DNA from: an uncultured Planctomycetota bacterium
Lineage (GTDB): Bacteria; Planctomycetota; JAJSAM01; JAKLKS01
Direction of reading: 5' to 3'
DNA length: 64,000 nucleotides
Assembly: GCA_964607145.1 (NCBI GenBank)
Contig: CAZSIX010000002.1
Span: 139,989 to 203,988 of the forward strand
A program made the translations under genes and the position numbers. Under the pieces are notes generated by a model. The model was not told where the DNA came from and ran no database searches. It was given only the letters and a program-made list of their open reading frames with translations. Of this stretch, positions 11,558-58,531 are shown one piece after another. The number at the start of each line of letters is the position of its first letter. Within the stretch, counting starts at the first letter, position 1.

Positions 11558-13015
11558 CTAGCGAACTCTCAGCTCGACCGCCTCAGCCCGATCGAACGGA
11601 CTCCCATCACCAACCTCATAGAAGTAGTTCGATCCCCACGCGAGCCAGGCTCCTTCAATATCAGTAGCGTGAGCCCCCGTGTCACCGGTGAAGAGTTCCA
11701 CAACCCCGCTCACAGTCGTCCGAACAGGGTAAGCGCGATGGGCGAACGACCCATCGCAGAGTTCGCCCCGCGAGTTGCTTCCCCAACCGAACAGCGCTCC
11801 TTGCGAATCTAGCGCATATCCAGAGTCAAACCCTGCCGCAATGCGTACGATACTGCGAAGACCCACAACGCTGCCCGGAGTCAAACGACTGACCTGAGTT
11901 CCATCTCCCAGCTGACCAAACGCATTCGAGCCCCAGGTGAACACCTCACCGCTGTCGCTGAGCACCAATGAGAACTGACCGCGTGCCGCAACGGCGACCG
12001 CGGTTGGGATTCCCGGAACGCCAACCGGGGTCCACCGATCCTCCGTTGCTCCGTCCCCAAGCTGGCCGGCCCCGTTCCACCCCCATGCGAGAACCGCGCC
12101 GCCGTTCAGGAGTGCCACGTTGTGCTGGTTGCCGACCGCGAGCGCGCGAATGCCGTCTAGCGCGGGAACGCGGATCGGTCGAACGCGAGGGCTATCGGTA
12201 CCATCGCCCAAGTTTCCTCTGGCGTTGCCTCCCCACGCAAAGACCTCTCCTGCGGCAGTTACGGCGAAAGACGTAAAAAAACCCGCTGAAACCGCAATCG
12301 GATCCCGAACCTCCGGAACAGGTTCGGGTACGACGCTGGGAGCACCGTCCATGAACCCATCGTGGTCCCCCCAGAACAGGAGCGTTCCATCATCCCGGAT
12401 CGCGAGGAGATGCTCTCCCCCGGCCGCGATGGTAACGATGCGCGAGAAGCCCTCCAGCGGCACCGGGCGCGTCTCGTAGTACGGATAGCCCTCACCGTAG
12501 GGTCGCGACTCGTTTCGCGCAAAGGACGCGGGGTACTCACCCCAGAAGCGGAGCGTTCCATCGGACATGCGCGCAACCCCGAACTCCGTTCCGAACTGCA
12601 CGTCGCTCACTCGCGGAACGACATCAATCCGGCGTGACTTTGAGATGACTCGACTGTCAGCCGTCCTAACCCGCACGCGCACGTCTTCGTGGACCTCGGT
12701 GGGGCTCCAGTTGAACTGGGCAGTGCGGGCGCTCTCCGTTCCGAGAATGTCCCAGGTCAGCCCCGAGTCTCTGGACGCTTCCACAACGACGATCTCGCCC
12801 CCGACCCCTTGCGCCTTCCACTCGACCGTTGCAACCCTTCCCACCGGCCACAGTTCGTGATTTCGCGGCTCACGCAGCATGATCTTGCCGAAGGCCCCTG
12901 TTGGATCGTCAGAGTTATTGCGGCCACAGCCGGGCAGCACGAGCCCAAACTGAAGCACAACAGAAACCAGAACGACCGCAGCGCAACGCGCACGACTGAG
13001 CGACAACGCCGACAT
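11558..13015 (-). CDS. RCC1-repeat (beta-propeller) lipoprotein
   Basis: MSALSLSRARCAAVVLVSVVLQFGLVLPGCG (lipobox); several repeats of the type WGWNGAGQLGDG, WGSNAFGQLGDG, WGGNARGNLGDG. Nucleotide composition and codon use are clearly lower in GC than the flanks. Confidence 0.85.
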   Translation of the reverse strand: MSALSLSRARCAAVVLVSVVLQFGLVLPGCGRNNSDDPTGAFGKIMLREPRNHELWPVGRVATVEWKAQGVGGEIVVVEASRDSGLTWDILGTESARTAQFNWSPTEVHEDVRVRVRTADSRVISKSRRIDVVPRVSDVQFGTEFGVARMSDGTLRFWGEYPASFARNESRPYGEGYPYYETRPVPLEGFSRIVTIAAGGEHLLAIRDDGTLLFWGDHDGFMDGAPSVVPEPVPEVRDPIAVSAGFFTSFAVTAAGEVFAWGGNARGNLGDGTDSPRVRPIRVPALDGIRALAVGNQHNVALLNGGAVLAWGWNGAGQLGDGATEDRWTPVGVPGIPTAVAVAARGQFSLVLSDSGEVFTWGSNAFGQLGDGTQVSRLTPGSVVGLRSIVRIAAGFDSGYALDSQGALFGWGSNSRGELCDGSFAHRAYPVRTTVSGVVELFTGDTGAHATDIEGAWLAWGSNYFYEVGDGSPFDRAEAVELRVR

Positions 13016-13311
13016 CCGTGCGCATGCGCGTCGCGCACCCGCGCCAGACGCTGGCCATCGATGCGGCATATTGCCGCGCCGAGTCATCGAGGAACTCAAG
13101 CGGCTGCCGCACAGGCCCAAGCTACACGGCACAGTGTCGGGATACGGTGTCAGTCTCCCACGTGGTTTCCGCGGTGCGTTCACTCCGCGACGGGGCCCCG
13201 CGAAGGCAGCGCAACCCGGGAACAGCCGGACCGGCTCCGAACGGCGGAGCGGACGGGGGTGCCGACTCTCTCCGTCTCCCACCCACCGCCGCCGCACGCC
13301 GGCACGACCCC

Positions 13312-14091
13312 CTACCGCACCGTCCTGATCTGCAGCACCAGCGCGGCGTTGGAGATGCCGGGGACGTCGGCGAGGCCGGCCACGGTGAAGGTGCAGCGGG
13401 AGCCGCGGGCTCCGCCGAGGGGCTCGGGGAGGGGGCGCCAGGGGACGAGGGAGTCGGGGAGCGGGACGGGGACGCCGTCGCGGAGGAACCGGACGCGGTA
13501 GAGGAGGGCCCGCGGCGGGGCGTCGGGGCGGGCCGTCTGGTCGGTGTTCTCCAGGGTGATGGTCACGGTGGGGTCGCGGTCGGTGGTGTCCCGCTGGAGG
13601 GCGACGCACTCCACGGACCACCCGAGGAAGCAGGTGCCGGGCCATCCGTCGGCGCGGGCCACGAGGGTGCGTCCGTGGGGGGCCATGGTGAGGCGCGAGA
13701 ACAGGGGCCGATCGCCGGCGCCGCGGAGGGAGACGGAACCGGCGCGGGTCTCGCCGGGCGCCACGTCCTCCCACTCCACGTGGTCGAAGTGGAACGGCCG
13801 GTAGGGCGCGTCGAAGCCGGCGGCGGGGGCGGGGAAACCGAGTTCGACGTCCACGTCCAGCAGTTCCAGGGAGGCGGCGCCCTCGTTGGCCACGACGAAC
13901 TCGACGCGGCCGCCGTCGTCGTGGAAGTGGTTCTGGAGTTCGCGCACCACCACCCGCCCCCCGGGTCCGAGGCGGTCGCCGACGCCGGTCTGGAGCGCCG
14001 CGGGGTCGACGGTCCCGCCCACGCCGGCGCAGCCGGCGGCCACCGCCGCCGCCACGAGGGGGAGGGTGGCCCGGATCCAGGCGGGGTTCAC
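13312..14091 (-). CDS. Hypothetical lipoprotein
   Basis: GTG start overlaps the NUDIX stop (GTGA); VNPAWIRATLPLVAAAVAAGCAG signal/lipobox; last gene of the ispH-NUDIX operon. Confidence 0.6.
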   Translation of the reverse strand: MNPAWIRATLPLVAAAVAAGCAGVGGTVDPAALQTGVGDRLGPGGRVVVRELQNHFHDDGGRVEFVVANEGAASLELLDVDVELGFPAPAAGFDAPYRPFHFDHVEWEDVAPGETRAGSVSLRGAGDRPLFSRLTMAPHGRTLVARADGWPGTCFLGWSVECVALQRDTTDRDPTVTITLENTDQTARPDAPPRALLYRVRFLRDGVPVPLPDSLVPWRPLPEPLGGARGSRCTFTVAGLADVPGISNAALVLQIRTVR

Positions 14092-14684: not shown

Positions 14685-15613
14685 CGCACCGTCGGGAGGA
14701 GTTCGCGGGGCAGGGCGAACCGGACGTTCTCGATGACCGTGGGGACCTCCTCCGGCTCGCCGCCCCCCAGTTCGCGGAGGCGGGCCACGATGCTGCGCAC
14801 CAGTTCCTCCGGCGCCGAGGCCCCGGCGGTGATGCCCACCGTCTCCACGCCGGCGAACCAGGCCGGGTCGAGATCGCGGGCCGACTCCACGAGCCGGGCC
14901 GGCGCGCCCCCCTGGGAGCCCACCTCGACGAGGCGCTGGGAGTTGGAGGAGTTGGGCGCGCCCACGACGAGCAGCAGGTCGATGCGCGGCGTGAGCGTCT
15001 TCACCGCGTTCTGGCGGTTCTGCGTGGCGTAGCAGATGTCCTCCTGCGGGGGCCCCTCGATGGCGGGGAACCGGCGCCGGAGGACGTCCACGATGGCGCG
15101 CGTGTCGTCCACGGAGAGGGTGGTCTGCGTGAGGAAGGCGACCCGCTCGGGGTCCTCCACGGCGACGCTCTCGGCGTCCGCGATGGAGCCCACGAGGCGC
15201 ATGCGCTCGGGGGCCTCCCCCATGGTGCCCTCGACCTCGACGTGCCCCGCGTGGCCGATGAGGAGGATCTCCCGCCCCTCCTCGGCGTGGCGGCGCGCCT
15301 CCAGGTGGACCTTCGTGACGAGGGGGCAGGTGGCGTCGATGGCGCGCAGTCCCCGCTCCGCCGCCTGCCGGCGGATCTCCGGGGAGACGCCGTGGGCGGA
15401 GTAGATGACGACGGCGCCAGGGGGGATCTCGGCGACGTCGTCCACGAACACCGCGCCCATCCCGCGCAACCGGTCCACCACGTGCCGGTTGTGGACGATC
15501 TCGTGGCGGACGTACACGGGGGGGCCGTGCATGTCGAGGGCGCGCTCGACGATCTCGATGGCGCGGTCCACCCCCGCGCAGAACCCGCGGGGGGCGGCGA
15601 GGAGGATCTTCAT
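14681..15613 (-). CDS. ispH: 4-hydroxy-3-methylbut-2-enyl diphosphate reductase
   Basis: MKILLAAPRGFCAGVDRAIEIVE..., conserved Cys ligands (CAGV, ATCPLV, ICYATQNRQ). Confidence 0.95.
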   Translation of the reverse strand: MKILLAAPRGFCAGVDRAIEIVERALDMHGPPVYVRHEIVHNRHVVDRLRGMGAVFVDDVAEIPPGAVVIYSAHGVSPEIRRQAAERGLRAIDATCPLVTKVHLEARRHAEEGREILLIGHAGHVEVEGTMGEAPERMRLVGSIADAESVAVEDPERVAFLTQTTLSVDDTRAIVDVLRRRFPAIEGPPQEDICYATQNRQNAVKTLTPRIDLLLVVGAPNSSNSQRLVEVGSQGGAPARLVESARDLDPAWFAGVETVGITAGASAPEELVRSIVARLRELGGGEPEEVPTVIENVRFALPRELLPTVR

Positions 15614-15807
15614 CGGGGGGAGGATACACCAGCCCCGGGGAGACCCCCTCCTCGCGCGCCCGCCTTGCCCCGCCCGGAGGGAAGAGATAGCCTTGACGCC
15701 GTGTTGATGCGTGAAGGTCCCGGGGGGGCGTGCCGGGGGACGGCGCGATCCGTCCCGGGAATCGCGGTCGAGCGTCCGCAGCGCGGGCGCGGGGGAGGCG
15801 GCAGGAC

Positions 15808-16053
15808 ATGAGCGGCAAGAAGGGGTTCCTGGTGTTCGCGGCGGTGGCGGGTCTGCTCTCGGCGGGGGCGGTCGGGTGCGCCTCCAAGGGCGATCACCAC
15901 GGCGAGAAGAAGGACGACTCGAAGATGGAGAAGAACTCCTGCAAGGGCGGCGGCAAGTGCAAGGAGGGCGGGAAGTGCAAGTCCGGCGGACAGTGCAAGG
16001 AAGGCGGCAAGTGCAAGGCCGGCGGCGGCTGCGGCAAGAACTCCTGCGGCTAG
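15808..16053 (+). CDS. Small secreted/lipoprotein Cys-rich repeat peptide (GG[KQ]CK repeats); candidate RiPP precursor for the adjacent MNIO
   Basis: MSGKKGFLVFAAVAGLLSAGAVGCAS (signal peptide, lipobox) then KGDHHGEKKDDSKMEKNSCKGGGKCKEGGKCKSGGQCKEGGKCKAGGGCGKNSCG; GGAGG RBS 9 nt upstream of ATG 15808; located 57 nt before the DUF692 gene. Confidence 0.75.
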   Translation: MSGKKGFLVFAAVAGLLSAGAVGCASKGDHHGEKKDDSKMEKNSCKGGGKCKEGGKCKSGGQCKEGGKCKAGGGCGKNSCG

Positions 16054-16110
16054 ACGATCCCACGGCATGACCGGGACGCCGGGGGCCCCGCCTCCGGCGT
16101 CCCTCCCGCC

Positions 16111-16965
16111 ATGATCGCCAACCGATTCGGCCTCCCGGACCTCGGGTTCGGCGTGGGGCTCCGCCCGACGCACTACGCCCACGTCCTCTCGACGTGGCCG
16201 GCGGTGGACTTCTTCGAGATCATCTCGGAGAACTACATGGACCAGGGGGGGCGGCCGCGGGAGGCGCTGGAGGCGGTGGCCGCGCGCTACCCCGTCGTCA
16301 TGCACGGCGTGTCGCTGTCCATCGGGTCCACGGATCCCCTGGACATGGACTACCTCCGCCGCCTGCGGGCGCTGGCGGATCGCATCGACGCGCCCTGGCT
16401 GAGCGACCACCTCTGCTGGACCGGCGTGGCGGGGGAGAACCTCCACGACCTGATGCCCGTGCCCCGGACCGAAGAGGCGGTGCGCCACATCCGCGACCGG
16501 GTGCGGCGCGTCCAGGACTTCCTCGGGCGGCCGCTCCTGCTGGAGAACCCCTCCTCGTACATGGGCTTCGCCGCCGACGCCATGCCCGAGGCGGAGTTCC
16601 TGGCCCGCATCGCCGAGGGCGCCGACTGCGCCCTCCTGCTGGACGTGAACAATGTCCACGTGAGCGCGCGGAACCACGGGTTCGACCCGGAGGCGTACAT
16701 CCGCACGCTCCCCCTGGACCGCGTCGTGCAGTTCCACCTCGCCGGCCACGAGGACCACGGGGCGTACATCATCGACACGCACGACGCGCACGTCGTGGAC
16801 GCCGTGTGGGACCTCTTCCGGCGCACCTGGGCGCTGACGGGGCCCCGCGCGACGCTGGTGGAGTGGGACGACCACATCCCGCCCTTCGAGGTCGTGCACG
16901 CGGAGGCGGAGCGCGCCCGCGCGGAGGCGGCGGCGTCCCCGGCGGAGGGCGCCGTTGCCCGGTAG
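16111..16965 (+). CDS. DUF692 family protein (multinuclear non-heme iron oxidative enzyme, MbnB/TglH/BufB-like)
   Basis: 284 aa; [42 protein letters not shown] motifs typical of DUF692/MNIO TIM-barrel proteins. Confidence 0.9.
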
Positions 16966-17770
16966 GGAGGGGCGCGACGGGGCCCTCGACGGGCTGGAGC
17001 GCTGGGTGCGGGACGTCGTGACCGCGCCCGCGGACCCCGACGGCGCGGAGGCGGGGCGCGTCCTCGCCCCCCTCCCGGGCCTCCCCCCGGCGGAGCAGTT
17101 GCGGATCTACCGGGACGGCTGGTTCTCGCGGCTCCGCTCGGCGCTGGCGGAGGACTTCCCGGGCCTCGAGCACGCCCTCGGCCACCACGGGTTCGACCAC
17201 CTCTGCGCCGACTACCTGCGCGCCCACCCGTCCTCGTACACCGACATCTGCCGCGTGGGCGTGGACATGGAGCGGTTCGTGCGGTCCCGGACGGACCTCG
17301 CCGACGTCGGGTTCCTCGCCGACCTGGCGCGACTGGAGTGGTCCGTCACGTCGGTCTTCGACCGCGCCGACGGCCCGGTGCTGCGGGTCGCCGATCTCGA
17401 GGGGACGGACACGGAGACGCTCGCCGCCGCCCGCTTCCCCCTGGCGTCCACCACGGACCTCCTGGACCTGGGGTACCCGGTGCACGAGTACCTGGAGGCC
17501 GTCCTCGCCGAGGGGTCGCCGGCGGTTCCCGCGCCGCGGCCCTGCACCGTCGTCGTCTCCCGCGCCGGGACCGCCATGAGCCGGATGGAGGTCGCCGGCC
17601 CCCTCGTCCCCGTGCTGCGGGCGCTGGCGGAGGGCGCGTCGCTGGAGGAGGCGGTCGGCACCGCCGCGGAGTGCGCGGAGGACGACGCGGCGCTGGAAGC
17701 CCTGGCGGTGGCGATGCGGGACGGGTTCGCGCGCTGGGTCGGGGCGGGCGTGTTCGCGCCGACGGGGTAG
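16955..17770 (+). CDS. DUF2063 family protein (MbnC/BufC-like partner of the MNIO)
   Basis: 271 aa; overlaps the DUF692 gene by 11 nt; N-terminal region typical of DUF2063 (LQRWV-like, [19 protein letters not shown]). Confidence 0.8.
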
Positions 17771-17808
17771 GCCGCGGGCCGCTGGCCCGATCCCGACCCG
17801 AGAGGCCG

Positions 17809-18669
17809 TCAGTTCCCCTTGCGGGCGTCCTCGGCGTCCTTCTCCGCCAGGATGCGGGTCCACTCGGCGACCAGGGCGCGGTACTTCTCGGGGACCTTGT
17901 CGAAGTCGCCGTTGTCCACGGCCTCGCGGACCTTGGCGGGGAGGCGGGCGAAGAACGCGCTCTTGAGGTCCTCCTCCGACGGCGGGTCGCGGTCGCTGCG
18001 GGGGGGCCGGGCGGAGGGGTCCGCGGGGTCCCGGCTCTCGCGGCCGTCCTCGGGCTTGTCCCCCTTCGGCTTGCCTTCCTCGTCCGTCTTCGGCTTCTCC
18101 TCCCCGTCGCCGGGCTTCGGATCCTGCTTGCCCTCCTGGTCCTTCTTCTCGGGGGAGGGCTCGTCCCCCTTCCCTCCGGACCCGGACCCGGGCTGGGGCT
18201 GCCCGCTCCCGTCGCCGGAGGGGGAGCCGGTCCGCGCCTGGGCGAGGAGGTCGTCGATGCCCGAGAGGATGGCACCGCCCTGCCCCTTCACCGCGCGGAG
18301 GAGTTCCGCCATTCCCTCCGACGCGCCGTTCCCGCCGCCCGTCGGGGCGGCGCTCCCGGAGGAGGCGGACCCCCGTCCGCAGGACTCGCAGGACCCGCCG
18401 GCGGGCATGGACGCGCCGTTCTTGCAGTCGCCGCAGTCCTCGGGGAGGCGGATGTCCACGGGGCCCGCGGCCGCCTTCTCGCCCCGCGCCAGGCGGGCGA
18501 GGCTGGCCTCGTTGGCCTTCAGGGCCCGCGTGATCCGCGCGGCGATCTCCCGGATGTCCTCCTGCCCCTCGGGGCCGTGGACCGGGCCCTCCGCGACGGC
18601 CTGCGGGGCGGCGAAGAGGAGGATCGCCGCGGCGGCGGGCAGGAACGGCGTGGAGCGCGGGCGGGCCAT
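17809..18669 (-). CDS. Secreted low-complexity protein with CxxC...CxxC cluster and conserved C-terminal domain
   Basis: MARPRSTPFLPAAAAILLFAAPQAVA signal peptide, GGAGGTG RBS; DCGDCKNG...SCESCG; Lys/Glu/Asp/Pro-rich middle; C-terminal ARLPAKVREAVDNGDFDKVPEKYRALVAEW. Confidence 0.6.
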   Translation of the reverse strand: MARPRSTPFLPAAAAILLFAAPQAVAEGPVHGPEGQEDIREIAARITRALKANEASLARLARGEKAAAGPVDIRLPEDCGDCKNGASMPAGGSCESCGRGSASSGSAAPTGGGNGASEGMAELLRAVKGQGGAILSGIDDLLAQARTGSPSGDGSGQPQPGSGSGGKGDEPSPEKKDQEGKQDPKPGDGEEKPKTDEEGKPKGDKPEDGRESRDPADPSARPPRSDRDPPSEEDLKSAFFARLPAKVREAVDNGDFDKVPEKYRALVAEWTRILAEKDAEDARKGN

Positions 18670-18933
18670 GGTCACCTCCGGCGTGCCCGCGGCGGGTGTT
18701 CCCGGGGCACGACTCCCAGTATAGACGCCCGGGGGGAGGCCGGCGTGCCGGGTTCCGCCGGCAGGGCGGGGAGCGCGGACGCCGCGGTCACCGCCCGTCG
18801 CCCGGGGCCGGCGGGATCGGCGGCGGGGAAGGGGGGAACCCACCCGATCCCCGCCCGCGGCGGAACGGTCGGCGCGCGGGGACCGGGCCGCCGCGGCCCG
18901 GTGGTAGGACCCCGGGCCGCGGCGCGTGGTTCT

Positions 18934-19263
18934 CTAGGAGAGATGACCGGCGATGAGCTTGGTCATCTCGAACATCGAGACCTGCTTCTTGCCGCCGAAG
19001 ATGGGCTTCAGCTTGTCGTCGGCGTTGATCATGCGGCGGTTCTTCGCGTCCTGGAGACCGTTCTTCTTGATGTAGTCCCAGATCTTCTTCGTGACCTCGG
19101 TGCGGGGCATCGCCTTGGCGCCGATCACCGCGCCCAGCGCCGCACTGGGGTTGAGCGCCTTCATGAAGGCCGGGTTCGGCTTCCGCTTCGCGGCCTTCTT
19201 CTTCGGCGCCGCCTTCTTCGCCGGTGCCGCCTTCTTCGCCTTCGCCTTCTTCTTCGCCGCCAA
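18934..19263 (-). CDS. SWIB/MDM2-domain protein with Lys/Ala-rich N-terminal tail
   Basis: C-terminal MPRTEVTKKIWDYIKKNGLQDAKNRRMINADDKLKPIFGGKKQVSMFEMTKLIAGHLS is a SWIB fold; N-terminal AAKKKAKAKKAAPAKKAAPKKKAAKRK. Start assumed at TTG 19261-19263 preceded by AAGGAGG; an alternative ATG (MKALNPS) gives a shorter protein. Confidence 0.75.
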   Translation of the reverse strand: MAAKKKAKAKKAAPAKKAAPKKKAAKRKPNPAFMKALNPSAALGAVIGAKAMPRTEVTKKIWDYIKKNGLQDAKNRRMINADDKLKPIFGGKKQVSMFEMTKLIAGHLS

Positions 19264-19421
19264 GAGTCCCTCCTTCTGGCCCTTGCGCCAAAGGGGTCGA
19301 TCCGGCCCCTCGCTACTGTTGGTGCGGGTCGGGCTACCCAGCCCGAACCCGACGACGAAATCTACGCCACGATTCGGACACTTTCCAGAGGGAAACGGGA
19401 GGGAGGACGCGCTTCGCCGAC

Positions 19422-21590
19422 TCAGAACTCGAGGGTGAGGGTCAGGACGAGGCCCCGGCCGGCGCCGTTGACCCCCGACCCGTGGAAGCGGTAGTCCCGG
19501 TTGAGGACGTTCTCCACGGCCAGGTCGAGGCGCGCCGCCGCCCCCAGGCGGAGCCCCCCGCGGATGTGGAGAACGCCGAAGCCGGGGGTCCCTCCGTCCG
19601 GGATGCGCGTGTCGGCGGCGTCGGCGGACGAGAGCCGGTCCTGCCCGTCGGCGGCGACGAACACCGCCTCGATGTACCAGCGGCGCTCCGTGCCCGACTC
19701 GTGGCGGAGCCACAGGGCCCCGAAGGTCGGCGGGATCTTCGAGAGCGGCTCGCCGGTGTCGCGGTGGGTGCCCCGGGTGAAGGTGATGTTGCCGCCGGTG
19801 CTGAAGCCGCCTCCGAGCAGCACGCGGAGGTCCGCTTCGAGTCCGTCGATGCGGGCCGTGCCGACGTTCCCGCGCGTGGTGTACGCCCGCCCCGAGCCGT
19901 CGGTGGCGGCGCCGCCGTAGGTCGTGGGGACCCGGTCGATGAGGTCGCGGAGGTGGGAGCGGTACCACGTGACGCCGCCGGAAACGCGATCCCGCTCCGC
20001 GCGCAGACCCATCTCCCATTGCGTGAGCGTCTCCGGATCGAGATCGCGGGCGGGCACGTCGAAGGAGGTGGAGGTGACCTGGAAGACGGTCAGGTCCTCC
20101 ACGTTGGGGGCGCGGAAGCCGCGGGAGATCCCGGTGTAGGCGCGGAAGCCGCCGCCGAGATCCCCGTGGAGGTGCGCGGCGCCGGTGACGTCGGAGAACG
20201 ACTCGGAGAAGTCCGCCAGGGGCGTGGCGTCGGAGGGATCGGGATCCACGTCCCGCGCGTCGATGCGGAAGCGGCTGGCCCGCACCCCCGCCACGGCGCG
20301 CAGGCGATCCGTGAGCCGGGCCTCGTCCTGCACGTACGCCCCCGCCGACGTGTAGGTCGCGGAGCCCGCGAAGGTCCCCCGGTCGAAGTCCGTGCGCGCG
20401 CCCGTCGTCACGTCCGTCCTCACGCGGTCGCTGGAGACGGAGTCGCGGTACCACTCGAGGCCCCAGGAGATCCGGTGCGCCTCGTGCGGGACGGTGGTGG
20501 CGCGCACCACGACCCCCGGCGTCGTCACGTCGTCGTTGGTGCGGTCCAGGTTGTCGCTGCCCGTGCGCCGCTCGAAGCGGCGCTCCGTCTGGCGGTGCAG
20601 GCTGACGGTGGTCTCCACCGCGCGCAGCAGGTCGGAACTCCCCTCCGCGCGGAGGGTCGCCGCGACGAGGTCCCGCTCCTGCTCCTCGATGCGCCAGACC
20701 GCGTTGCGCGTGCTGCCCGTTCCCCGCCAGCCGGTCACGAGGAACTGGGGGCGACGGACTCCCTCCTGCCGGACGTGCTGGGCCACGAGGTCGAGGGACC
20801 GCCCCTCTCCCAGGGCGAGGCGCGCCGCCATGTCGCCGTCGGTCTCGTCGTACCCCGTGAAGGGCTGCGTGTCCACGTGACGCCCGCCGCGGAGATCGCC
20901 GAAGGCGCCGATGCTCCCGCCGGCGAGCAGGCCGAGACCGGTGCTCCGCACGTTCCCCTCGATGCGGAGCCGCTCCGAGTCCTCGGCGGTGGCGTCCCGG
21001 TACGCGAGGCGCCCGCCCGCCGTGGCCGCGCCCTCCGCCAGCGGCTCCGCGCGCCGCGTGAGGACGCGCACGACGCCGCCTAGGGCGTCGCTCCCGTAGA
21101 GCACCGACGACGGGCCGCGGACCACCTCGATGCGTTCCACGGTCTCGACGTCCACCGTGGCCAGGTACTGGTTGGGGCCGCCCCGGTAGGTGGAGTTGTT
21201 GAGGCGCACGTCGTCGATCATGAGCAGCGTCTGCTTGCCGATGAGCCCGCGGAGGATGGGGGAGCCCTGCCCGTGGGTGGTCTTCTGGACGAAGATCCCG
21301 ACCTCCTCCAGCAGCGCCTCGGGGACGTTGCGGGACTGCCGATCGAGGATCTCCCGGCGGTCCACCACGGTCACGGCGAAGGGAACGTCGCCGACGGCGG
21401 CGCGCGTGGAGGTGGCGGTGACCTGGACCTCCGGGACCAGCGCCGCCTCGGGCTCCGGGGGCGGCGGATCCTCCGCCGGCGAAGGGGCGGGGAGGGGCGG
21501 TGGCGCGTCCTGGGCCAGGCCCGCGGGCGGGTCCGCCGCGAGGGCGGCGGCGGCGAGGAACAGGGGCAGGACGGGGCGGCGTCGATGCAT
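19422..21590 (-). CDS. TonB-dependent outer-membrane receptor
   Basis: 722 aa; signal peptide, plug domain (LLMIDDVRLN...RIEVVRGPSSVLYGSDALGGVV), C-terminal beta-barrel ending in aromatic residue (LTLEF). Confidence 0.9.
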   Translation of the reverse strand: MHRRRPVLPLFLAAAALAADPPAGLAQDAPPPLPAPSPAEDPPPPEPEAALVPEVQVTATSTRAAVGDVPFAVTVVDRREILDRQSRNVPEALLEEVGIFVQKTTHGQGSPILRGLIGKQTLLMIDDVRLNNSTYRGGPNQYLATVDVETVERIEVVRGPSSVLYGSDALGGVVRVLTRRAEPLAEGAATAGGRLAYRDATAEDSERLRIEGNVRSTGLGLLAGGSIGAFGDLRGGRHVDTQPFTGYDETDGDMAARLALGEGRSLDLVAQHVRQEGVRRPQFLVTGWRGTGSTRNAVWRIEEQERDLVAATLRAEGSSDLLRAVETTVSLHRQTERRFERRTGSDNLDRTNDDVTTPGVVVRATTVPHEAHRISWGLEWYRDSVSSDRVRTDVTTGARTDFDRGTFAGSATYTSAGAYVQDEARLTDRLRAVAGVRASRFRIDARDVDPDPSDATPLADFSESFSDVTGAAHLHGDLGGGFRAYTGISRGFRAPNVEDLTVFQVTSTSFDVPARDLDPETLTQWEMGLRAERDRVSGGVTWYRSHLRDLIDRVPTTYGGAATDGSGRAYTTRGNVGTARIDGLEADLRVLLGGGFSTGGNITFTRGTHRDTGEPLSKIPPTFGALWLRHESGTERRWYIEAVFVAADGQDRLSSADAADTRIPDGGTPGFGVLHIRGGLRLGAAARLDLAVENVLNRDYRFHGSGVNGAGRGLVLTLTLEF

Positions 21591-21722: not shown

Positions 21723-23144
<1,422 letters not shown>

Positions 23145-23282
23145 GGGGGTCTCCGGGGTGGCGAGGGCGGGACGGCGCCCAAGGTACGGCGGCACGGGGC
23201 GGCGCCGGGCAAAGATGCCCGTCGGGAGCGGGACCCGCGTGACCGGGTCACGGCGGGGGCGCGGCGGGCCAGGTCCGGCCGA

Positions 23283-24950
23283 CTACGTCCGGTTCCAGTC
23301 GAAGACCGGGCGCTCCGGTTTGCCGTACATGGTCAGCGCGCCGCGCTCGCCCACCGCGTTGGGCCGCTGGAAGATCCAGTTCTGCCACGCGGAGAGGCGG
23401 CCGAAGACCTTGGTCTCCGGCGTCTCGCGTCCGGCGAACCGGAGGTTCGCCTCCAGCCCGGTGAGGGAGTCCGGCGACAGGCTCACGCGCTCCTCGCAGG
23501 CCACGCGGACCTCGTCCTCGAAGTCGATGTCGTCCAGCGCGAACGTGACGAGGCCGGCCTCCTCGGCGGCGACCGCGGCGAGGGGTTGCGTCGCCGCGCA
23601 GACCTCGTCCGCCCGCGCCGCGTCCGCGAGGAAGCGGCTCTGGAGGCGGGTGAGCCCGTTCCCCATGGGAAGGGGTCCCCCGTTCATCGCGGACACGGCG
23701 ACGGTGACGGCGCCGGCCTCGTCCTCCAGCATGTAGGAGCGATCCGCCGCCAGGGCGGGCTCCAGGAGCGAGCCCGCGAAGCACGAGCCCCCGTCGATGA
23801 CGGCGAAGAGGGACTTGGCGGTGAGGTCGAGGCGACGGAGCGTGCGCGCCCGGAAGGCGATCATCTCGTCCGCGAACCAGTGGGCCCGCGCGGCGAGGAG
23901 CGCGCGGTCCCACTCCAGGACGCGGGCGACGTCGCCCCGGGTCTTCAGCAGGACGAGCCCGATCTCCAGGTGGTTGACCCGGAGCCGGAGGAGCGCGTCG
24001 TCGAACTCCCGCCATGCGCGCAGCGCCCAGGTCTCCGACCCCGCGGCGAGCCACGCGGGCCCGTCCGCCGGCGGTGCGGCCGCGGGCCCCTCGATGGTGA
24101 GGGTGGCGCGGCGGCCGGGAGCGTCCAGTTCCAGCAGGACGTGCCGGTAGCGGATCGCCGACGGGGTGACCTCCGGCGAGAGCGGCTCCAGGGGGACGCC
24201 GGGCCCGCCCCGGGAGGGGCGCTCGGCGCGGCTCGCCGCCGCCAGGGCGGCGCTCCGCTCCGCCACCACGGCGTCGAACCGGCTCCGCGGCGCCAGGGCG
24301 TCCACGAGGCCCCAGTCCACCGCGCGCTGCCCCTTGATGCCCTCGGCCACGGTGCAGAACACGTCGGCGCGATCCCGCCGGACCTTCCGCTTGTCCACCA
24401 CGCGGGTGAGTCCGCCGGTGCCGGGGAGCACGCCCAGCAACGGGACCTCGGGGAGGCTCACGGCGCTGTTCCCGTCGTCCACGAGGACGATGTCGTCGCA
24501 GGCGAGGGCCAGTTCGTACCCGCCGCCGGCGCACGTCCCGTTGAGCGCCGCCAGCGAGCGGAGGCCGCTGCGCAGGCTCGCGTCCTCCAGCGCGAGGCGC
24601 GTCTCGTTGGTGAACTTGCAGAAGTTCACCTTGAAGGCGTGGCCCGACGTGGCGAGCATGTTGATGTTCGCGCCGGCGCAGAAGATGCGGTCCTTGGCGC
24701 TGGAGACGACGACGCAGCGCACGCCCGGGTGCTCGAAGCGCAGGCGCTGGATGGCGTCCGCCAGTTCGATGTCCACGCCGAGGTCGTAGGAGTTGAGCTT
24801 CAGCCGGTACCCCTCGCGCAGCGGCGCGTCCTCCCTCACGTCCATGGCGAGGCGGGCGATCTCGCCGTCCACCGTGAGCCGCCAGTGGCGGTACCGGGAG
24901 GGATGCGTCTCGAAGTCCACGGCGGGGGCGGGCGCGGCGGCGTCGTCCAT
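23283..24950 (-). CDS. boxC: Benzoyl-CoA-dihydrodiol lyase (enoyl-CoA hydratase/isomerase superfamily)
   Basis: 555 aa; crotonase-fold motifs (RCVVVSSAKDRIFCAGANI, ALNGTCAGGGYELALACD) and size typical of BoxC. Confidence 0.85.
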   Translation of the reverse strand: MDDAAAPAPAVDFETHPSRYRHWRLTVDGEIARLAMDVREDAPLREGYRLKLNSYDLGVDIELADAIQRLRFEHPGVRCVVVSSAKDRIFCAGANINMLATSGHAFKVNFCKFTNETRLALEDASLRSGLRSLAALNGTCAGGGYELALACDDIVLVDDGNSAVSLPEVPLLGVLPGTGGLTRVVDKRKVRRDRADVFCTVAEGIKGQRAVDWGLVDALAPRSRFDAVVAERSAALAAASRAERPSRGGPGVPLEPLSPEVTPSAIRYRHVLLELDAPGRRATLTIEGPAAAPPADGPAWLAAGSETWALRAWREFDDALLRLRVNHLEIGLVLLKTRGDVARVLEWDRALLAARAHWFADEMIAFRARTLRRLDLTAKSLFAVIDGGSCFAGSLLEPALAADRSYMLEDEAGAVTVAVSAMNGGPLPMGNGLTRLQSRFLADAARADEVCAATQPLAAVAAEEAGLVTFALDDIDFEDEVRVACEERVSLSPDSLTGLEANLRFAGRETPETKVFGRLSAWQNWIFQRPNAVGERGALTMYGKPERPVFDWNRT

Positions 24951-25025
24951 GGAGGGGTCTCCCGTGCGGCCGGGGAATGGAACGGCCCCCGGGAGCGCTC
25001 CCCGGGGGCCGCTGGAACGCTCGGG

Positions 25026-30076: not shown

Positions 30077-30101
30077 CGTTGGTTCGTAGGATGGCGCGCC
30101 C

Positions 30102-31433
30102 GTGAGCGAGCCCGCGACGCTGGAACCCGGAACGATGCTGGCGCACTACCGCGTGGAGTCCGTCCTGGGCGCGGGCGGCATGGGGACGGTCTACCTGGCG
30201 CGGGACACGGCGCTGGACCGGCCCGTGGCGGTGAAGGTGCTGCGGCCGGAGGTGGCGGGGGATCCGGACACGCTGGACCGGTTCGTGCGGGAGGCGCGGG
30301 CGGCGGCGCGGGTCAGCCACCCCAACCTGACGCACGTCTACTTCGTCGGCGGCGTGGAGGACCGGCCGTTCTTCGCCATGGAGCACGTGCCCGGCCGGAC
30401 GCTGGAGGAGCGGGTCCGGCAGGACGGTCCCTTCGACCTGGCCTCCGGCATCGACACGCTGACGCAGGCGGCGAAGGGCCTCCGGGCGGCCCACCGGGCG
30501 GGAGTGATCCACAGGGACGTGAAGCCCTCCAACCTGATGGTGCTGCCCGACGGCATGGTGAAGGTGACCGACTTCGGCCTCTCCAAGTCGATGCACGCCG
30601 ACGTGGAGGAGACCGCCGGCGGGCGGCTCATGGGGACGCCCACGTACATGAGCCCGGAGCAGTGCCGCGGCCGCGCGGTGGACGAGCGGACGGACGTGTA
30701 CCTCCTCGGGCTCACGGGCTGGTTCATCTTCGCCGGCGCGCCGCCCTACCCGGGGACCGTCCTCGCGGAGGTTCTCGACGCGCAGATGAACCGTGCGCTG
30801 CCGGACCTGCCCGACCGGGAGCCGTCCCTGCCTCCGGGCCTCGACGGGCTGCTCGCCGCCATGTGCGCCAAGGACCCCGCCGCCCGTCCCGCGGACATGG
30901 ACGCGGTGCTGGGGCGCCTGGCGGCGCTGCGGCCGCGCCCCGTGCGGATGGCGTCCGTGTTCGCCCGGGGAGCGGCCTTCGCCGCCGATACGGTCCTGTT
31001 CGGGACGGTCTTCGCGGCGCTCTCGTTCCTCTTCCTCGTCGTGCTGTCGGGCCGCGGCTCCGTGCTGGCGGAGACGCTGGAGGCGCTGGTGCTCCTGGCG
31101 GCGGCGGGCGCCGTCTTCCTGCTCCCGGAGGGGCTCTGGCAGACCTCCGCGGGGAAGGCGCTGTTCCACCTGCGGGTGGTGCGGGCCGACGGCACGCGGC
31201 CCGGGTGGGGGGCGCTGGCGGCCCGCGCGCTCCTCCGCCTCCCCGCCCCCGTGCTGCTCCCGCTGGCGCCGTTCGGGCCGGAGCGCGTCGGTGCGTGGCT
31301 CTTCGGGCTCCAGGGACTCGCCCTGGCGACGGGCTTCGTCTGGGTCCTCTTCGCGCAGGGCCGGACGCTGTCCGACGTCGTCACGGGAACACGCGTGGCG
31401 TACGACTTCGAGGACGAGCCCCCCCGGCGCTGA
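30102..31433 (+). CDS. Ser/Thr protein kinase fused to a C-terminal RDD-family membrane domain
   Basis: GAGGMGTVYLA...VAVKVL, HRDVKPSNLM, DFGLS, GTPTYMSPEQ; C-terminal hydrophobic segments with R..D..D pattern. Confidence 0.9.
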   Translation: MSEPATLEPGTMLAHYRVESVLGAGGMGTVYLARDTALDRPVAVKVLRPEVAGDPDTLDRFVREARAAARVSHPNLTHVYFVGGVEDRPFFAMEHVPGRTLEERVRQDGPFDLASGIDTLTQAAKGLRAAHRAGVIHRDVKPSNLMVLPDGMVKVTDFGLSKSMHADVEETAGGRLMGTPTYMSPEQCRGRAVDERTDVYLLGLTGWFIFAGAPPYPGTVLAEVLDAQMNRALPDLPDREPSLPPGLDGLLAAMCAKDPAARPADMDAVLGRLAALRPRPVRMASVFARGAAFAADTVLFGTVFAALSFLFLVVLSGRGSVLAETLEALVLLAAAGAVFLLPEGLWQTSAGKALFHLRVVRADGTRPGWGALAARALLRLPAPVLLPLAPFGPERVGAWLFGLQGLALATGFVWVLFAQGRTLSDVVTGTRVAYDFEDEPPRR

Positions 31434-46177: not shown

Positions 46178-46771
46178 TCACCGGGCCGCCGCGGGCGGCC
46201 CCCGCGGCCGGTAGTCGCGCACGAAGGCGAGCAGGCCGTCGAACCACCGGTGGAATCCCATCGCCAGCATCTCGTCCGCGGCCTCGTCGTTGTTCCAGCC
46301 GTGGACCTCCATGCGGTAGATGGCCACCAGCGCTCCCGTGCGATCGCAGCCCTGCGCGCAGTGCACGAACACGGGTCGGCTCGCGGGGTCCGTGGCGACG
46401 GCGAGGAACTCCTCGACGGTCCCCTCGTCCGGCGGGTCCACGGTGAGGCCCGCCCGGAGCGGGAGCGCCACGACGCGGAGGCCGAGCGCCTCCGCGGCGG
46501 GATCCTCGGGATGGACCGCGCGGAGGCACACCACCGTGCGGACGCCCAGGTCCCGGAGCGCGCGCAGGCCTTCGGCGTCCGGTGCGGCGCCCCGGTAGAG
46601 GCCGTCGTCGACCCGGGACAGGTGGGGGACGGGAATCGCGGCCATGCCGGGATCGGAGGCGGGGGCCGCGCAGCCGGCGACGCACAGCAGGGCGGACCCC
46701 GCCGCAAGGCCGTGACGGACTCTCCGGCTCGCCGCGACGGGAACGGCCACGGGAGCGGGCGGGGATCCCAT
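46178..46771 (-). CDS. Dual-specificity/protein-tyrosine phosphatase-like lipoprotein
   Basis: Lipobox LLCVAGCAAP; catalytic loop VHCAQGCDRTG (CX5R). Confidence 0.8.
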   Translation of the reverse strand: MGSPPAPVAVPVAASRRVRHGLAAGSALLCVAGCAAPASDPGMAAIPVPHLSRVDDGLYRGAAPDAEGLRALRDLGVRTVVCLRAVHPEDPAAEALGLRVVALPLRAGLTVDPPDEGTVEEFLAVATDPASRPVFVHCAQGCDRTGALVAIYRMEVHGWNNDEAADEMLAMGFHRWFDGLLAFVRDYRPRGPPAAAR

Positions 46772-57607: not shown

Positions 57608-57974
57608 GCGTCGACCACGGCGAGGCCGGGATTCGGACGGCGACGGTCGAAGGAGCGGGTTGCCCCGCGTGGCGGGCGCGCAGCGCACCCGACGCCTGCG
57701 CCGCCTGTACCCGCCGACGGCCGCGGGGCCGCCCGCCATCCCGACGTGCGACCCGACCGCGGGCGGTACCCTTCCTGCCCCGCCGGGCGTCGCCGGGAAC
57801 CGAGGTTGCGCCGGCGGGGTGCCCCTTCTGTCAGCGCTCTCGATCCAATCGCCGTTGGCGAACACCCGGATCCACGCACCCGCCCCCGCCGGACTCTTCG
57901 GGTCCCGGTCACCCCGGCGCAAGATGAACGTCGCGCGGGCCGGCCAGGGGCCAGGCCGCCGGAGGAGGCACACC

Positions 57975-58388
57975 ATGGCGGAAGCGGGCGTGGTGACGGT
58001 GCGGACCACGGCGGGCGAGGGGTACGCCTGCCGCGTGGATGCCGGGGGGCACGGGCTGCGTGCCGACGAGCCCGCGGCGGCGGGGGGGACGGACTCGGGG
58101 CCCACCCCCTCGGCTCTTCTGCTCTCGGCGCTGGGGGCCTGCACGGCCATCACCCTGCGGATGTACGCGGGGAGGAAGGGCTGGCCGCTGGAGGACGTCG
58201 AGGTGCGGCTCTCGCGCACGCCGGGCACCCCGGGCGACGGGGACGGCCGCGACCGCATCCACCGGTCGGTGCGGGTCACGGGATCCCTGGACGCGGAGCA
58301 GAGGGCCCGCCTCCTGGACATCGCCGGCAAGTGCCCCGTCCACCGCATGCTCACCGGCGGCATGGTGGTCGAGACCGTGGCGGGGTAG
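57975..58388 (+). CDS. OsmC/Ohr-family peroxiredoxin-like protein
   Basis: GGAGGAGG RBS; ...SALLLSALGACTAITLRMYA...LDIAGKCPVHRML (both conserved Cys). Confidence 0.85.
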   Translation: MAEAGVVTVRTTAGEGYACRVDAGGHGLRADEPAAAGGTDSGPTPSALLLSALGACTAITLRMYAGRKGWPLEDVEVRLSRTPGTPGDGDGRDRIHRSVRVTGSLDAEQRARLLDIAGKCPVHRMLTGGMVVETVAG

Positions 58389-58456: not shown

Positions 58457-58531
58457 TGGTAGCGGGGGCCGGATTCGAACCGGCGGTCTCCAGGTTATGA
58501 GCCTGACGAGATACCACTTCTCCACCCCGCG
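58457..58531 (-). tRNA. tRNA-Met (anticodon CAT; elongator Met or tRNA-Ile2 if lysidinylated)
   Basis: Minus-strand cloverleaf: acceptor CGCGGGG/CCCCGCU, D-stem GAGA/UCUC, anticodon stem-loop UCAGG-CUCAUAA-CCUGG, T-arm GCCGG-UUCGAAU-CCGGC, encoded ACCA 3' end. Confidence 0.75.

Follow-up and report, generated by a model that had tools for sequence, protein, structure and literature searches.

The question raised by this locus is which peptide maturation pathway is encoded by three adjacent genes in the genome of an uncultured Planctomycetota bacterium. The genes are located on contig CAZSIX010000002.1 (assembly GCA_964607145.1), within a stretch of 64,000 nucleotides that was analysed as a whole and is called the window below, and all three lie on the forward strand: a gene for a small precursor peptide (15808-16053, 81 amino acids), a gene for a DUF692 protein of the MNIO type (16111-16965, 284 amino acids) and a gene for a DUF2063 partner protein (16955-17770, 271 amino acids). 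A spacer of 57 nt separates the precursor gene from the MNIO gene, and a Shine-Dalgarno sequence (GGAGG, 15794-15798, +) can be read directly 9 nt before the precursor ATG. The partner gene, which starts with TTG, is translationally coupled to the MNIO gene via an 11-nt overlap. A preliminary description, made from the letters of the window alone, had interpreted these genes as a secreted Cys-rich precursor of a ribosomally made, post-translationally modified peptide (RiPP) with a DUF692 MNIO and a DUF2063 partner of the bufferin type. This is upheld by hidden Markov model (HMM) searches, by the fold of the partner and by conserved linkage, and the open reading frame (ORF) coordinates, the 57-nt gap and the gene overlap given there were all exact on re-reading. 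We propose that the locus is probably a buf2-type (bufA-bufB-bufC) RiPP operon for an envelope copper-chelating poly-thiooxazole lipopeptide pathway; the gene identities, the enzyme subfamily, the specificity residue, the fold of the partner, the lipobox, the repeat and the conserved linkage come from the present analysis.

The window has a GC content of 73.9% and long ORFs crowd all six frames. All three ORFs of the cluster carry a coding signature, with a GC content of 0.92-0.98 at third codon positions (GC3) versus 0.45-0.58 at second positions (GC2). Their translations were all found verbatim in a public protein collection, on one NCBI contig, and the MNIO and the precursor form singleton clusters in that collection. 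The three ORFs are coding and not chance.

The MNIO matches PF05114 (MbnB_TglH_ChrH) with 369.5 bits (E 1.1e-110), residues 13-271 covering profile positions 2-260 of 263, and the DUF692 identity given to it earlier was not refuted. It passes the NCBIfam equivalog MNIO_BufB (NF050167) with 366.7 bits at a cutoff of 310 and stays below the cutoffs of the sister models HvfB (269.5 of 360 bits), ApyH (113.6 of 400), MbnB (67.8 of 325) and ChrH (48.3 of 600); BufB is thus the sole NCBI curated maturase model that the enzyme passes. The metal-ligand motifs are intact: H65, D99/H100, E145, D178/N181, H209, D222/H224, E251 and D253 align with 3BWW, TglH (8HCI) and MbnB (7FC0), the role of the aligned residues as iron ligands being taken from the published structures. 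The catalytic Asp253 is followed by Asp254, and in the alignment the specificity site reads VEW-D253-D254-HIPPF in the window MNIO and ER-D-F-NFPPF in the Histophilus somni MNIO 3BWW. A selectivity determinant was described at the position that follows the catalytic Asp, with Phe in MNIOs for Lys-Cys (EGKCG) precursors and Asp in those for Cys-Lys precursors (BufB2 Asp251), and the precursors of MNIO-PME1 systems were sorted into a DUF2282, a Lys-Cys (EGKCG) and a Cys-Lys (Buf2) group (PMC13097082). The equivalent of FonB Arg15/Arg16 is R18-P19 in the window MNIO, with the second Arg absent.

The related enzymes were compared at 84 loci, namely the best 80 GTDB loci listed together with L001-L004. 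The site behind the catalytic Asp could be read in 82 of the MNIOs and is Asp in 72 of them, a count that is biased by the retrieval pattern VEWDDHIP. Nearly all of the 80 closest listed GTDB-representative MNIO loci have a Cys-rich ORF with a signal peptide directly upstream, and these ORFs are almost all of the CK(G) type, with a few that are DUF2282-like. The best GTDB-representative match to the window MNIO has about 62-64% identity among the matches listed. Since the enzyme passes the BufB model, fails the HvfB model and has Asp254 at the specificity site, the system is Buf2-like, and neither EGKCG/oxazolin-like nor methanobactin-like. By its sequence the window MNIO is a member of the Cys-Lys (Buf2-type) subgroup. 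The preliminary description had framed the cluster by methanobactin and bufferin pathways together; the bufferin half of this holds, specifically for the Buf2 'Cys-Lys' group, whereas the methanobactin half does not, the MbnB model being far below its cutoff.

The DUF2063 partner matches PF09836 with its N-domain (50.4 bits, cutoff 27.2, E 3e-13). A PDB sequence search with the partner returned noise only, and it was therefore modelled with AlphaFold2 (AF2) from seven homologues (predicted local distance difference test, pLDDT, 75.6) and the model was used for a fold search with Foldseek. This retrieved TglI, the partner of the MNIO TglH (E 1e-4), NGO1945 (3DEE), a DUF2063 protein now called NgoC (prob 1.0, TMt 0.65), and MbnC (prob 0.63), and the C-terminal part weakly matched RRE domains. 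As modelled, the protein is a PME-type 1 MNIO partner, composed of DUF2063 and an RRE-like C-domain, and is BufC/HvfC-like. On inspection, neither the MNIO nor the partner has an obvious N-terminal signal peptide. Modification should therefore be cytoplasmic, as in published systems.

The precursor, which is encoded by a bufA2-like gene and whose translation is MSGKKGFLVFAAVAGLLSAGAVGC followed by ASKGDHHGEKKDDSKMEKNSCKGGGKCKEGGKCKSGGQCKEGGKCKAGGGCGKNSCG, consists of a lipobox signal peptide (AVG-C24) and a core of 58 residues with five Cys-Lys sites (C45, C51, C57, C63, C69) and two Cys-Gly sites. The core sequence quoted in the preliminary description is exact, and its seven Cys, to which the lipobox Cys24 is additional, are spaced 6, 6, 6, 6, 6 and 5 residues apart. 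The five GG(K/Q)CK repeats that had been counted in it have to be corrected, as the exact GG[KQ]CK string occurs four times. In the DNA, an 18-nt (6-codon) unit that encodes CK-x-G-G-x is repeated 4.8 times at 15940-16026 (+) according to Tandem Repeats Finder (78% matches, score 111). Canonical BufA2 has the Cys spacing 6-6-7-6-(13), while the window family has 6-6-6-6-6-5 and then ends, and at the sequence level the repeat is a regularised form of the canonical 6-residue spacing. The repeat had been called unusually regular; this has to be corrected in so far as canonical BufA2 already has 6-residue Cys spacing. An hhalign comparison of the window family with 17 canonical BufA2 sequences, which aligned signal peptide and Cys-Lys region, gave a probability of 97.9% (E 4e-13), and remote homology of the precursor to BufA2 is supported at this sequence level.

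Within the family the n-region MSGKKG, the h-region AAVAG.L, G23-C24, the Cys-Lys sites and the C-terminal CGKNSC[G/A] are invariant. Only three relatives of the precursor came out of a word-indexed search among 5.8 billion proteins, and 1.84 billion cluster representatives, searched exhaustively with a profile, yielded 47 matches at E <= 1e-3. The nearest of these (P0005, P0008 and P0007) share the full family layout, and the remaining matches grade through short peptides with a signal peptide or lipobox and CKGxxx hexamers to canonical BufA2-like proteins. A scan of metagenomes with the precursor alignment added one new locus, L085. The precursor subfamily is rare, with about eight relatives, and unnamed so far; the strings CGKNSCG, GKNSCG, MSGKKG and GGKCK were not found in the accessible portions of the supplementary files of PMC12452194 and PMC13097082. 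With its multiple Cys-Lys motifs and its MNIO-PME1 cluster the precursor falls within the Cys-Lys group of captophorins (PMC13097082), and with a 6-residue Cys-Lys unit and no EGKCG motif it falls outside Buf_EGKCG/oxazolin.

A number of results weigh against the Buf2-type assignment. None of the Pfam and NCBIfam models matched the precursor, and for the NCBIfam BufA2 model (NF050166, cutoff 60 bits) the window peptide gave no match and the best family member, P0003, reached 10.3 bits (E 0.62). On the same model the control, Aeromonas BufA2, scored 93.6 bits, and divergent CK peptides from metagenome-assembled genomes (MAGs) of Acidobacteriota, Blastocatellia, Myxococcota and Phycisphaerales scored 20-57 bits. 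The hhalign score is partly due to the signal peptide and to low-complexity sequence. The precursor is without the C-terminal GW...C...GG part and without the CysI/CysVI disulfide pair of BufA2, and AF2 gives it no fold (pLDDT 47). Members of the BufA2 (BUF_6/12Cys) family have 6 or 12 conserved Cys, the outer two joined by a disulfide around a small folded domain; the core of the window peptide has 7. The partner aligns over its full length with the NCBIfam HvfC model (E 4e-11), at 43 bits versus a cutoff of 142, and the residue at position -3 of the lipobox, Ala, is atypical.

Another precursor made of repeats was seen elsewhere. Before the MNIO gene of a Blastocatellia MAG, whose enzyme is 62% identical to that of the window, a peptide is encoded (L005:3594-3905) that consists almost entirely of SSCKGK/EAGKSSCKGK repeats. 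This repeat-only Cys-Lys precursor scores just 22 bits on the BufA2 model.

The linkage of the three genes is conserved. In every relative with available upstream DNA the peptide gene lies directly upstream of the MNIO gene, and the DUF2063 gene follows where the contig reaches. Peptide, MNIO and DUF2063 genes are present in L001, L002 and L088 (the peptide of the last being P0005), and peptide and MNIO genes in L003/L004 and L085. On a Joint Genome Institute (JGI) contig, for which gene calls only were used, an ORF of 63 amino acids precedes MNIO and DUF2063 genes. The small ORF, whose loss next to MNIO genes of relatives would have spoken against the preliminary description, is kept there. 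Identity to the window proteins is 75-81% for the MNIO, 79-84% for the neighbouring IspH, 46-54% for the partner and about 51-56% for the peptide; with the lowest values in peptide and partner, the substrate and its binding partner evolve fastest. The flanks are conserved as well, with NUDIX and LytB/IspH genes divergent upstream and genes for a secreted protein of no known family and a SWIB protein downstream. This conserved synteny points to vertical inheritance in one lineage and not to a mobile island, and because it is general, the neighbours carry no functional signal.

A pathway can be outlined for these genes, in which the chemistry, lipidation, metal binding and regulation are taken over from published homologues. 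Firstly, the 81-residue precursor would be synthesized in the cytoplasm. Secondly, the MNIO and its DUF2063/RRE-like partner would use O2 to oxidise core Cys by four electrons each to 5-thiooxazoles, with a loss of 4 Da per Cys. The expected targets are the five Cys-Lys sites C45, C51, C57, C63 and C69, with up to seven Cys in all; for C75 and C80 in the invariant CGKNSCG, either modification or a disulfide could apply. The core from Cys24 to Gly81, unmodified and reduced, has a monoisotopic mass of 5747.55 Da, of which five conversions would remove 20.2 Da and seven conversions 28.2 Da. Thirdly, the modified, unfolded peptide would be exported by the Sec system. Then Cys24 would probably be modified with diacylglycerol and signal peptidase II would cut before it, which would leave a disordered peptide of 58 residues tethered to the membrane. 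This poly-thiooxazole peptide would chelate and sequester copper in the cell envelope, as for Buf1/Buf2. Lastly, expression would probably depend on a promoter of an extracytoplasmic function (ECF) sigma factor.

Installation of 5-thiooxazoles was reported for BufBC, HvfBC (after reassignment), FonBC and NgoBC (PMC11626156; PMC13097082; bioRxiv 10.64898/2025.12.15.693703). Buf2 is modified at its four central Cys, with a disulfide between the outer two, and buf2 protects against Cu (PMC11626156). Modification of BufA1 does not need the signal peptide (PMC11626156) and two EGKCG repeats are enough for FonBC (PMC13097082), which makes it plausible that the repeats themselves are recognised. By analogy with these systems, copper sequestration in the envelope is the likely function.

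The product is probably a lipoprotein, as judged from the lipobox match at Cys24 and from the residues that follow this Cys in the family. The N-terminus contains K4 and K5, the h-region FLVFAAVAGLLSAGAV and AVG-C, and thereby matches a PROSITE PS51257-style rule. G23-C24 is invariant across the family while the linker behind it varies, and the residue at +2 is Ala, Ser or Gly. The same operon and chemistry could instead lead to a soluble periplasmic product that is cut by signal peptidase I, with Cys24 as a modification site or disulfide partner. Most bufferins are soluble periplasmic peptides (PMC11626156) and the Ala at -3 would agree with such a product, so that this alternative retains some probability, although it is rather unlikely in view of the rule match and the invariant G23-C24 next to a variable linker. 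Moreover, many of the nearest profile matches share the n-region, the h-region and the [AG]C layout, and lipoproteins have precedents in both groups: lipoprotein signals are predicted in 16% of Buf2 (PMC12452194), and NedA is a lipidated EGKCG MNIO peptide, as was demonstrated experimentally (PMC13056109).

Another type of N-terminus was seen among Cys-Lys MNIO precursors of other phyla. Twin-arginine-like starts (MNRRDFAKLML, MMQRRDFNKML, MKRRDFNKLL) occur in L005:3594-3905, L006:2027-2389 and L021:3557-3970 and in the proteins P0009, P0016, P0043 and P0045, from Blastocatellia, Phycisphaerales and Rickettsiales MAGs. These sequences suggest export by the twin-arginine translocation (Tat) rather than the Sec system for those precursors. 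A literature search found no paper naming both MNIO and twin-arginine, and Tat is not mentioned in PMC12452194.

Upstream of the precursor gene, an alignment of six family loci contains two invariant islands, a promoter-like motif and a palindrome, in DNA that is otherwise 60% identical. The first is the ECF-type motif GGGAAG-N18-GTT (15679-15705, +), which recurs as GGGAA[T/G]-N18-GTT at identical spacing in 6/6 loci. This pattern has its sole match in the 64-kb window here, with 0.31 matches expected and at least one match in 26 of 100 shuffles. It matches the promoter core of sigma-H/R/E, GGAAT-N18-19-GTT; at -31 every base is accepted by sigma-H, and the promoter of rshA is GGAAGA-N17-GTT (PMC10012870). 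The operon is probably expressed from a conserved ECF-type promoter, to judge by this motif, and transcription is predicted to start near 15712, some 7 nt past the GTT. The Caulobacter sigma-F motif GTAACC-N16-CGAA (PMC3511200) was also considered and does not match the conserved upstream motif, and consensus sequences of sigma-70 promoters or intrinsic terminators were not found in 15400-18000.

The second island is a palindrome or hairpin of the 5' untranslated region, GTGCCG-GGGGA-CGGCGC (15730-15747, +), with the form GCGCCG-GGGGA-CGGCGC conserved across the six loci. In the alignment, 97% of its cells are paired, with one compensatory change and one G.U; this was equalled by 91 of 500 shuffles, so that covariation is weak. 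A further GC-rich hairpin of 14 bp (16073-16103, +) is found in the spacer that separates the precursor gene from the MNIO gene (minimum free energy -38.2 kcal/mol, z -2.6). Hairpins of unrelated sequence occur at most 70 nt from the precursor stop in L001, L003, L085 and L088 and farther downstream in L002, and inverted repeats are common in the window DNA, which weakens the case for the hairpin at 16073-16103. It is only suggestive of an attenuator or mRNA stabiliser that could set the ratio of precursor to enzyme transcript.

The promoter motif and the C-terminus of the peptide enter into a reading in which the locus stands for a distinct class. The product would then be a lipid-anchored, disordered poly-thiooxazole peptide with CGKNSC[G/A] as a new recognition, redox or metal element, and its operon would form part of an ECF sigma-H/R-like regulon for thiol or envelope stress that is not copper-specific. 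If true, the role of the peptide might be membrane redox or electrophile buffering and not copper sequestration, and the repeat-only design of EGKCG peptides would be combined with the Cys-Lys recognition of Buf2. We regard this as unlikely, and favour copper chelation by a Buf2-type pathway.

It could further be that the MNIO performs another chemistry on an atypical substrate, such as cross-linking or macrocyclisation, or that its true substrate is encoded elsewhere. Members of the MNIO superfamily carry out diverse chemistry (PMC12452194), none of the precursor HMMs detects this precursor and the invariant CGKNSCG is a CxxxxC motif without an assigned role. Yet all characterised MNIO-PME1 pairs of the mega-cluster make 5-thiooxazoles (PMC13097082), the enzyme passes the BufB equivalog, and the peptide co-varies with the enzyme pair and is strictly linked to it; such an alternative seems very unlikely.

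In another possibility, the peptide would be an EGKCG/oxazolin-type (Lys-Cys) substrate with recognition of a Lys-preceded Cys, as in HvfA, FonA and NedA. The window peptide indeed contains three KCK, its EGGKCK units resemble EGKCG, the repeat-only and probably unstructured design is like that of short EGKCG peptides, of which a lipidated example is known (PMC13056109). However, the Lys before Cys is not conserved, as KC occurs three times in the window peptide and 0-1 times in its relatives, while the Lys after Cys is conserved and an EGKCG motif is absent. Substrates in which a charged residue follows Cys are left unprocessed by FonBC (PMC13097082), and the window enzyme has Asp254 and not Phe at the selectivity site and scores above the BufB and below the HvfB cutoff, which makes this interpretation highly improbable. 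Finally, although spurious ORFs are plentiful in all six frames of the 74% GC window, the idea that the small ORF is an unexpressed chance ORF in GC-rich DNA is effectively refuted already by its in-frame GC3 of 0.92, its Shine-Dalgarno sequence and the preservation of signal peptide, lipobox, CK repeats and CGKNSCG end at 51-56% identity and at the same position in at least six independent contigs.

The surroundings of the Buf2-type operon contain genes for an RCC1-repeat protein, NUDIX, IspH and SWIB proteins, a heme/siderophore-like TonB receptor and BoxB/BoxC. Known bufferin accessory genes were not found among the neighbours of the cluster, nor was DoxX or an ECF sigma factor among ten further suitably sized ORFs of the window. 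The cluster had been described as minimal, with no DoxX or sigma genes nearby, which is correct as an observation but is the published norm for Buf2: DoxX is missing from buf2ABC of Caulobacter (PMC11626156), as are sigma/NrsF genes from Buf2 clusters (PMC12452194). As uptake partners, the TonB-dependent receptor (19422-21590) and the genes past it were considered and rejected. The receptor is heme/siderophore-like at scores below the model cutoffs and follows the cluster in L086 alone among the relatives, and next to it come BoxB and BoxC, which belong to benzoyl-CoA catabolism. The secreted protein encoded at 17809-18843 (-) likewise offers no sign of a functional link, being on the opposite strand and without a family match, in a general synteny with LytB, NUDIX and SWIB that is conserved as well. 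It combines a signal peptide with a CGDC...CESC segment, a long low-complexity middle rich in Gly, Ser, Pro, Lys and Glu and a conserved C-terminal helix region, and its gene is kept convergent right after the partner gene in L001, L002, L086, L088 and L090.

Other features of the window are listed for completeness. A protein with a SWIB/MDM2 domain, whose N-terminus is rich in Lys and Ala and histone-H1-like, is encoded at 18934-19299 (-) and near the cluster in L001, L086 and L090. At 21723-25025 (-), BoxB (benzoyl-CoA 2,3-epoxidase, 767.7 bits) and BoxC (2,3-epoxybenzoyl-CoA dihydrolase, 808.1 bits) both score above their equivalog cutoffs, and their presence beside a TonB-dependent receptor indicates, by sequence assignment, an aerobic benzoyl-CoA pathway. 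A large RCC1-repeat (RLD) protein with an apparently lipoprotein-type N-terminus (…VLPGCGRNNS) is found at 11558-13774 (-), and a Ser/Thr protein kinase with a PknB-like catalytic domain, a dual-specificity/Tyr phosphatase-like protein and an OsmC-like peroxiredoxin at 30090-31433 (+), 46178-46771 (-) and 57819-58388 (+), respectively. Rfam families were not found near the cluster, and the single tRNA of the window is at 58460-58531.

The class to which we assign the locus, the bufferin or captophorin peptides, in which an iron enzyme converts Cys to metal-binding thiooxazole rings, has been well described in 2024-2026. Thiooxazole chemistry, Sec signals, lipoprotein variants and minimal A-B-C clusters are all published, and thousands of bufferins and >21,000 captophorin precursors have been catalogued. 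With chemistry, export route, lipoprotein variants and architecture already known, the find raises no new question. What is new is modest: a rare, HMM-invisible, repeat-only lipobox precursor subfamily with an invariant CGKNSCG end, in a high-GC lineage and with a conserved ECF-type promoter. It extends the bufferin/captophorin class to a lineage of 74% GC outside the closest GTDB representatives. Current precursor HMMs (Pfam DUF2282 and NCBIfam BufA2) miss short repeat-only Cys-Lys precursors, and enzyme-centred mining will therefore call such clusters precursor-less. With its lipobox and its five Cys-Lys hexamers of near-identical sequence, the peptide is also a compact natural substrate and could aid studies of iterative MNIOs and of lipidated RiPPs.

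Among known systems, methanobactin (MbnA/MbnB/MbnC) shares with the window locus a DUF692 MNIO that acts with a partner on Cys of a ribosomal peptide, and a copper-binding product. It differs in that its partner MbnC lies outside DUF2063, MbnA carries a leader peptide instead of a Sec signal, the product is of the oxazolone-thioamide type and dedicated export and uptake genes are present. The EGKCG/oxazolin systems (HvfABC, FonABC fontiphorin, NgoABC gonophorin and NedABC) share the enzyme mega-cluster, the PME-type 1 partner and the repeat-only, probably unstructured core. They also have thiooxazole chemistry and copper-binding peptides, and lipoprotein-type members exist (NedA). Their Lys-Cys-Gly motif comes in units of 5 or repeats of 17 residues, and they have an MNIO with Phe behind the catalytic Asp, a match to HvfB and frequently DoxX, whereas the window has Cys-Lys 6-mers, Asp254, an HvfB score below the cutoff and no DoxX. 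Hundreds of unclassified small ORFs with signal peptides and 1 to 18 Cys precede MNIO genes of the mega-cluster (PMC12452194); the window peptide fits this unclassified bin as well as the 'Cys-Lys' captophorin group of PMC13097082, both of which are catch-all bins.

The comparison with bufferin 2 of Caulobacter vibrioides (bufA2B2C2, CCNA_03001-02999) covers each part of the locus. Both have the A-B-C gene order without DoxX and without sigma/anti-sigma genes, an MNIO of the BufB model with Asp at the selectivity site, a DUF2063 partner, and a precursor with an N-terminal export signal and Cys-Lys sites about six residues apart. Unlike bufferin 2, the window precursor is undetected by the BufA2 HMM and is without GW...C...GG, the outer disulfide pair and a predicted fold. 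It has instead a strict 6-residue tandem repeat, a lipobox in place of a signal peptidase I site and the invariant CGKNSC[G/A], and the promoter motif of its operon differs from the Caulobacter sigma-F motif GTAACC-N16-CGAA.

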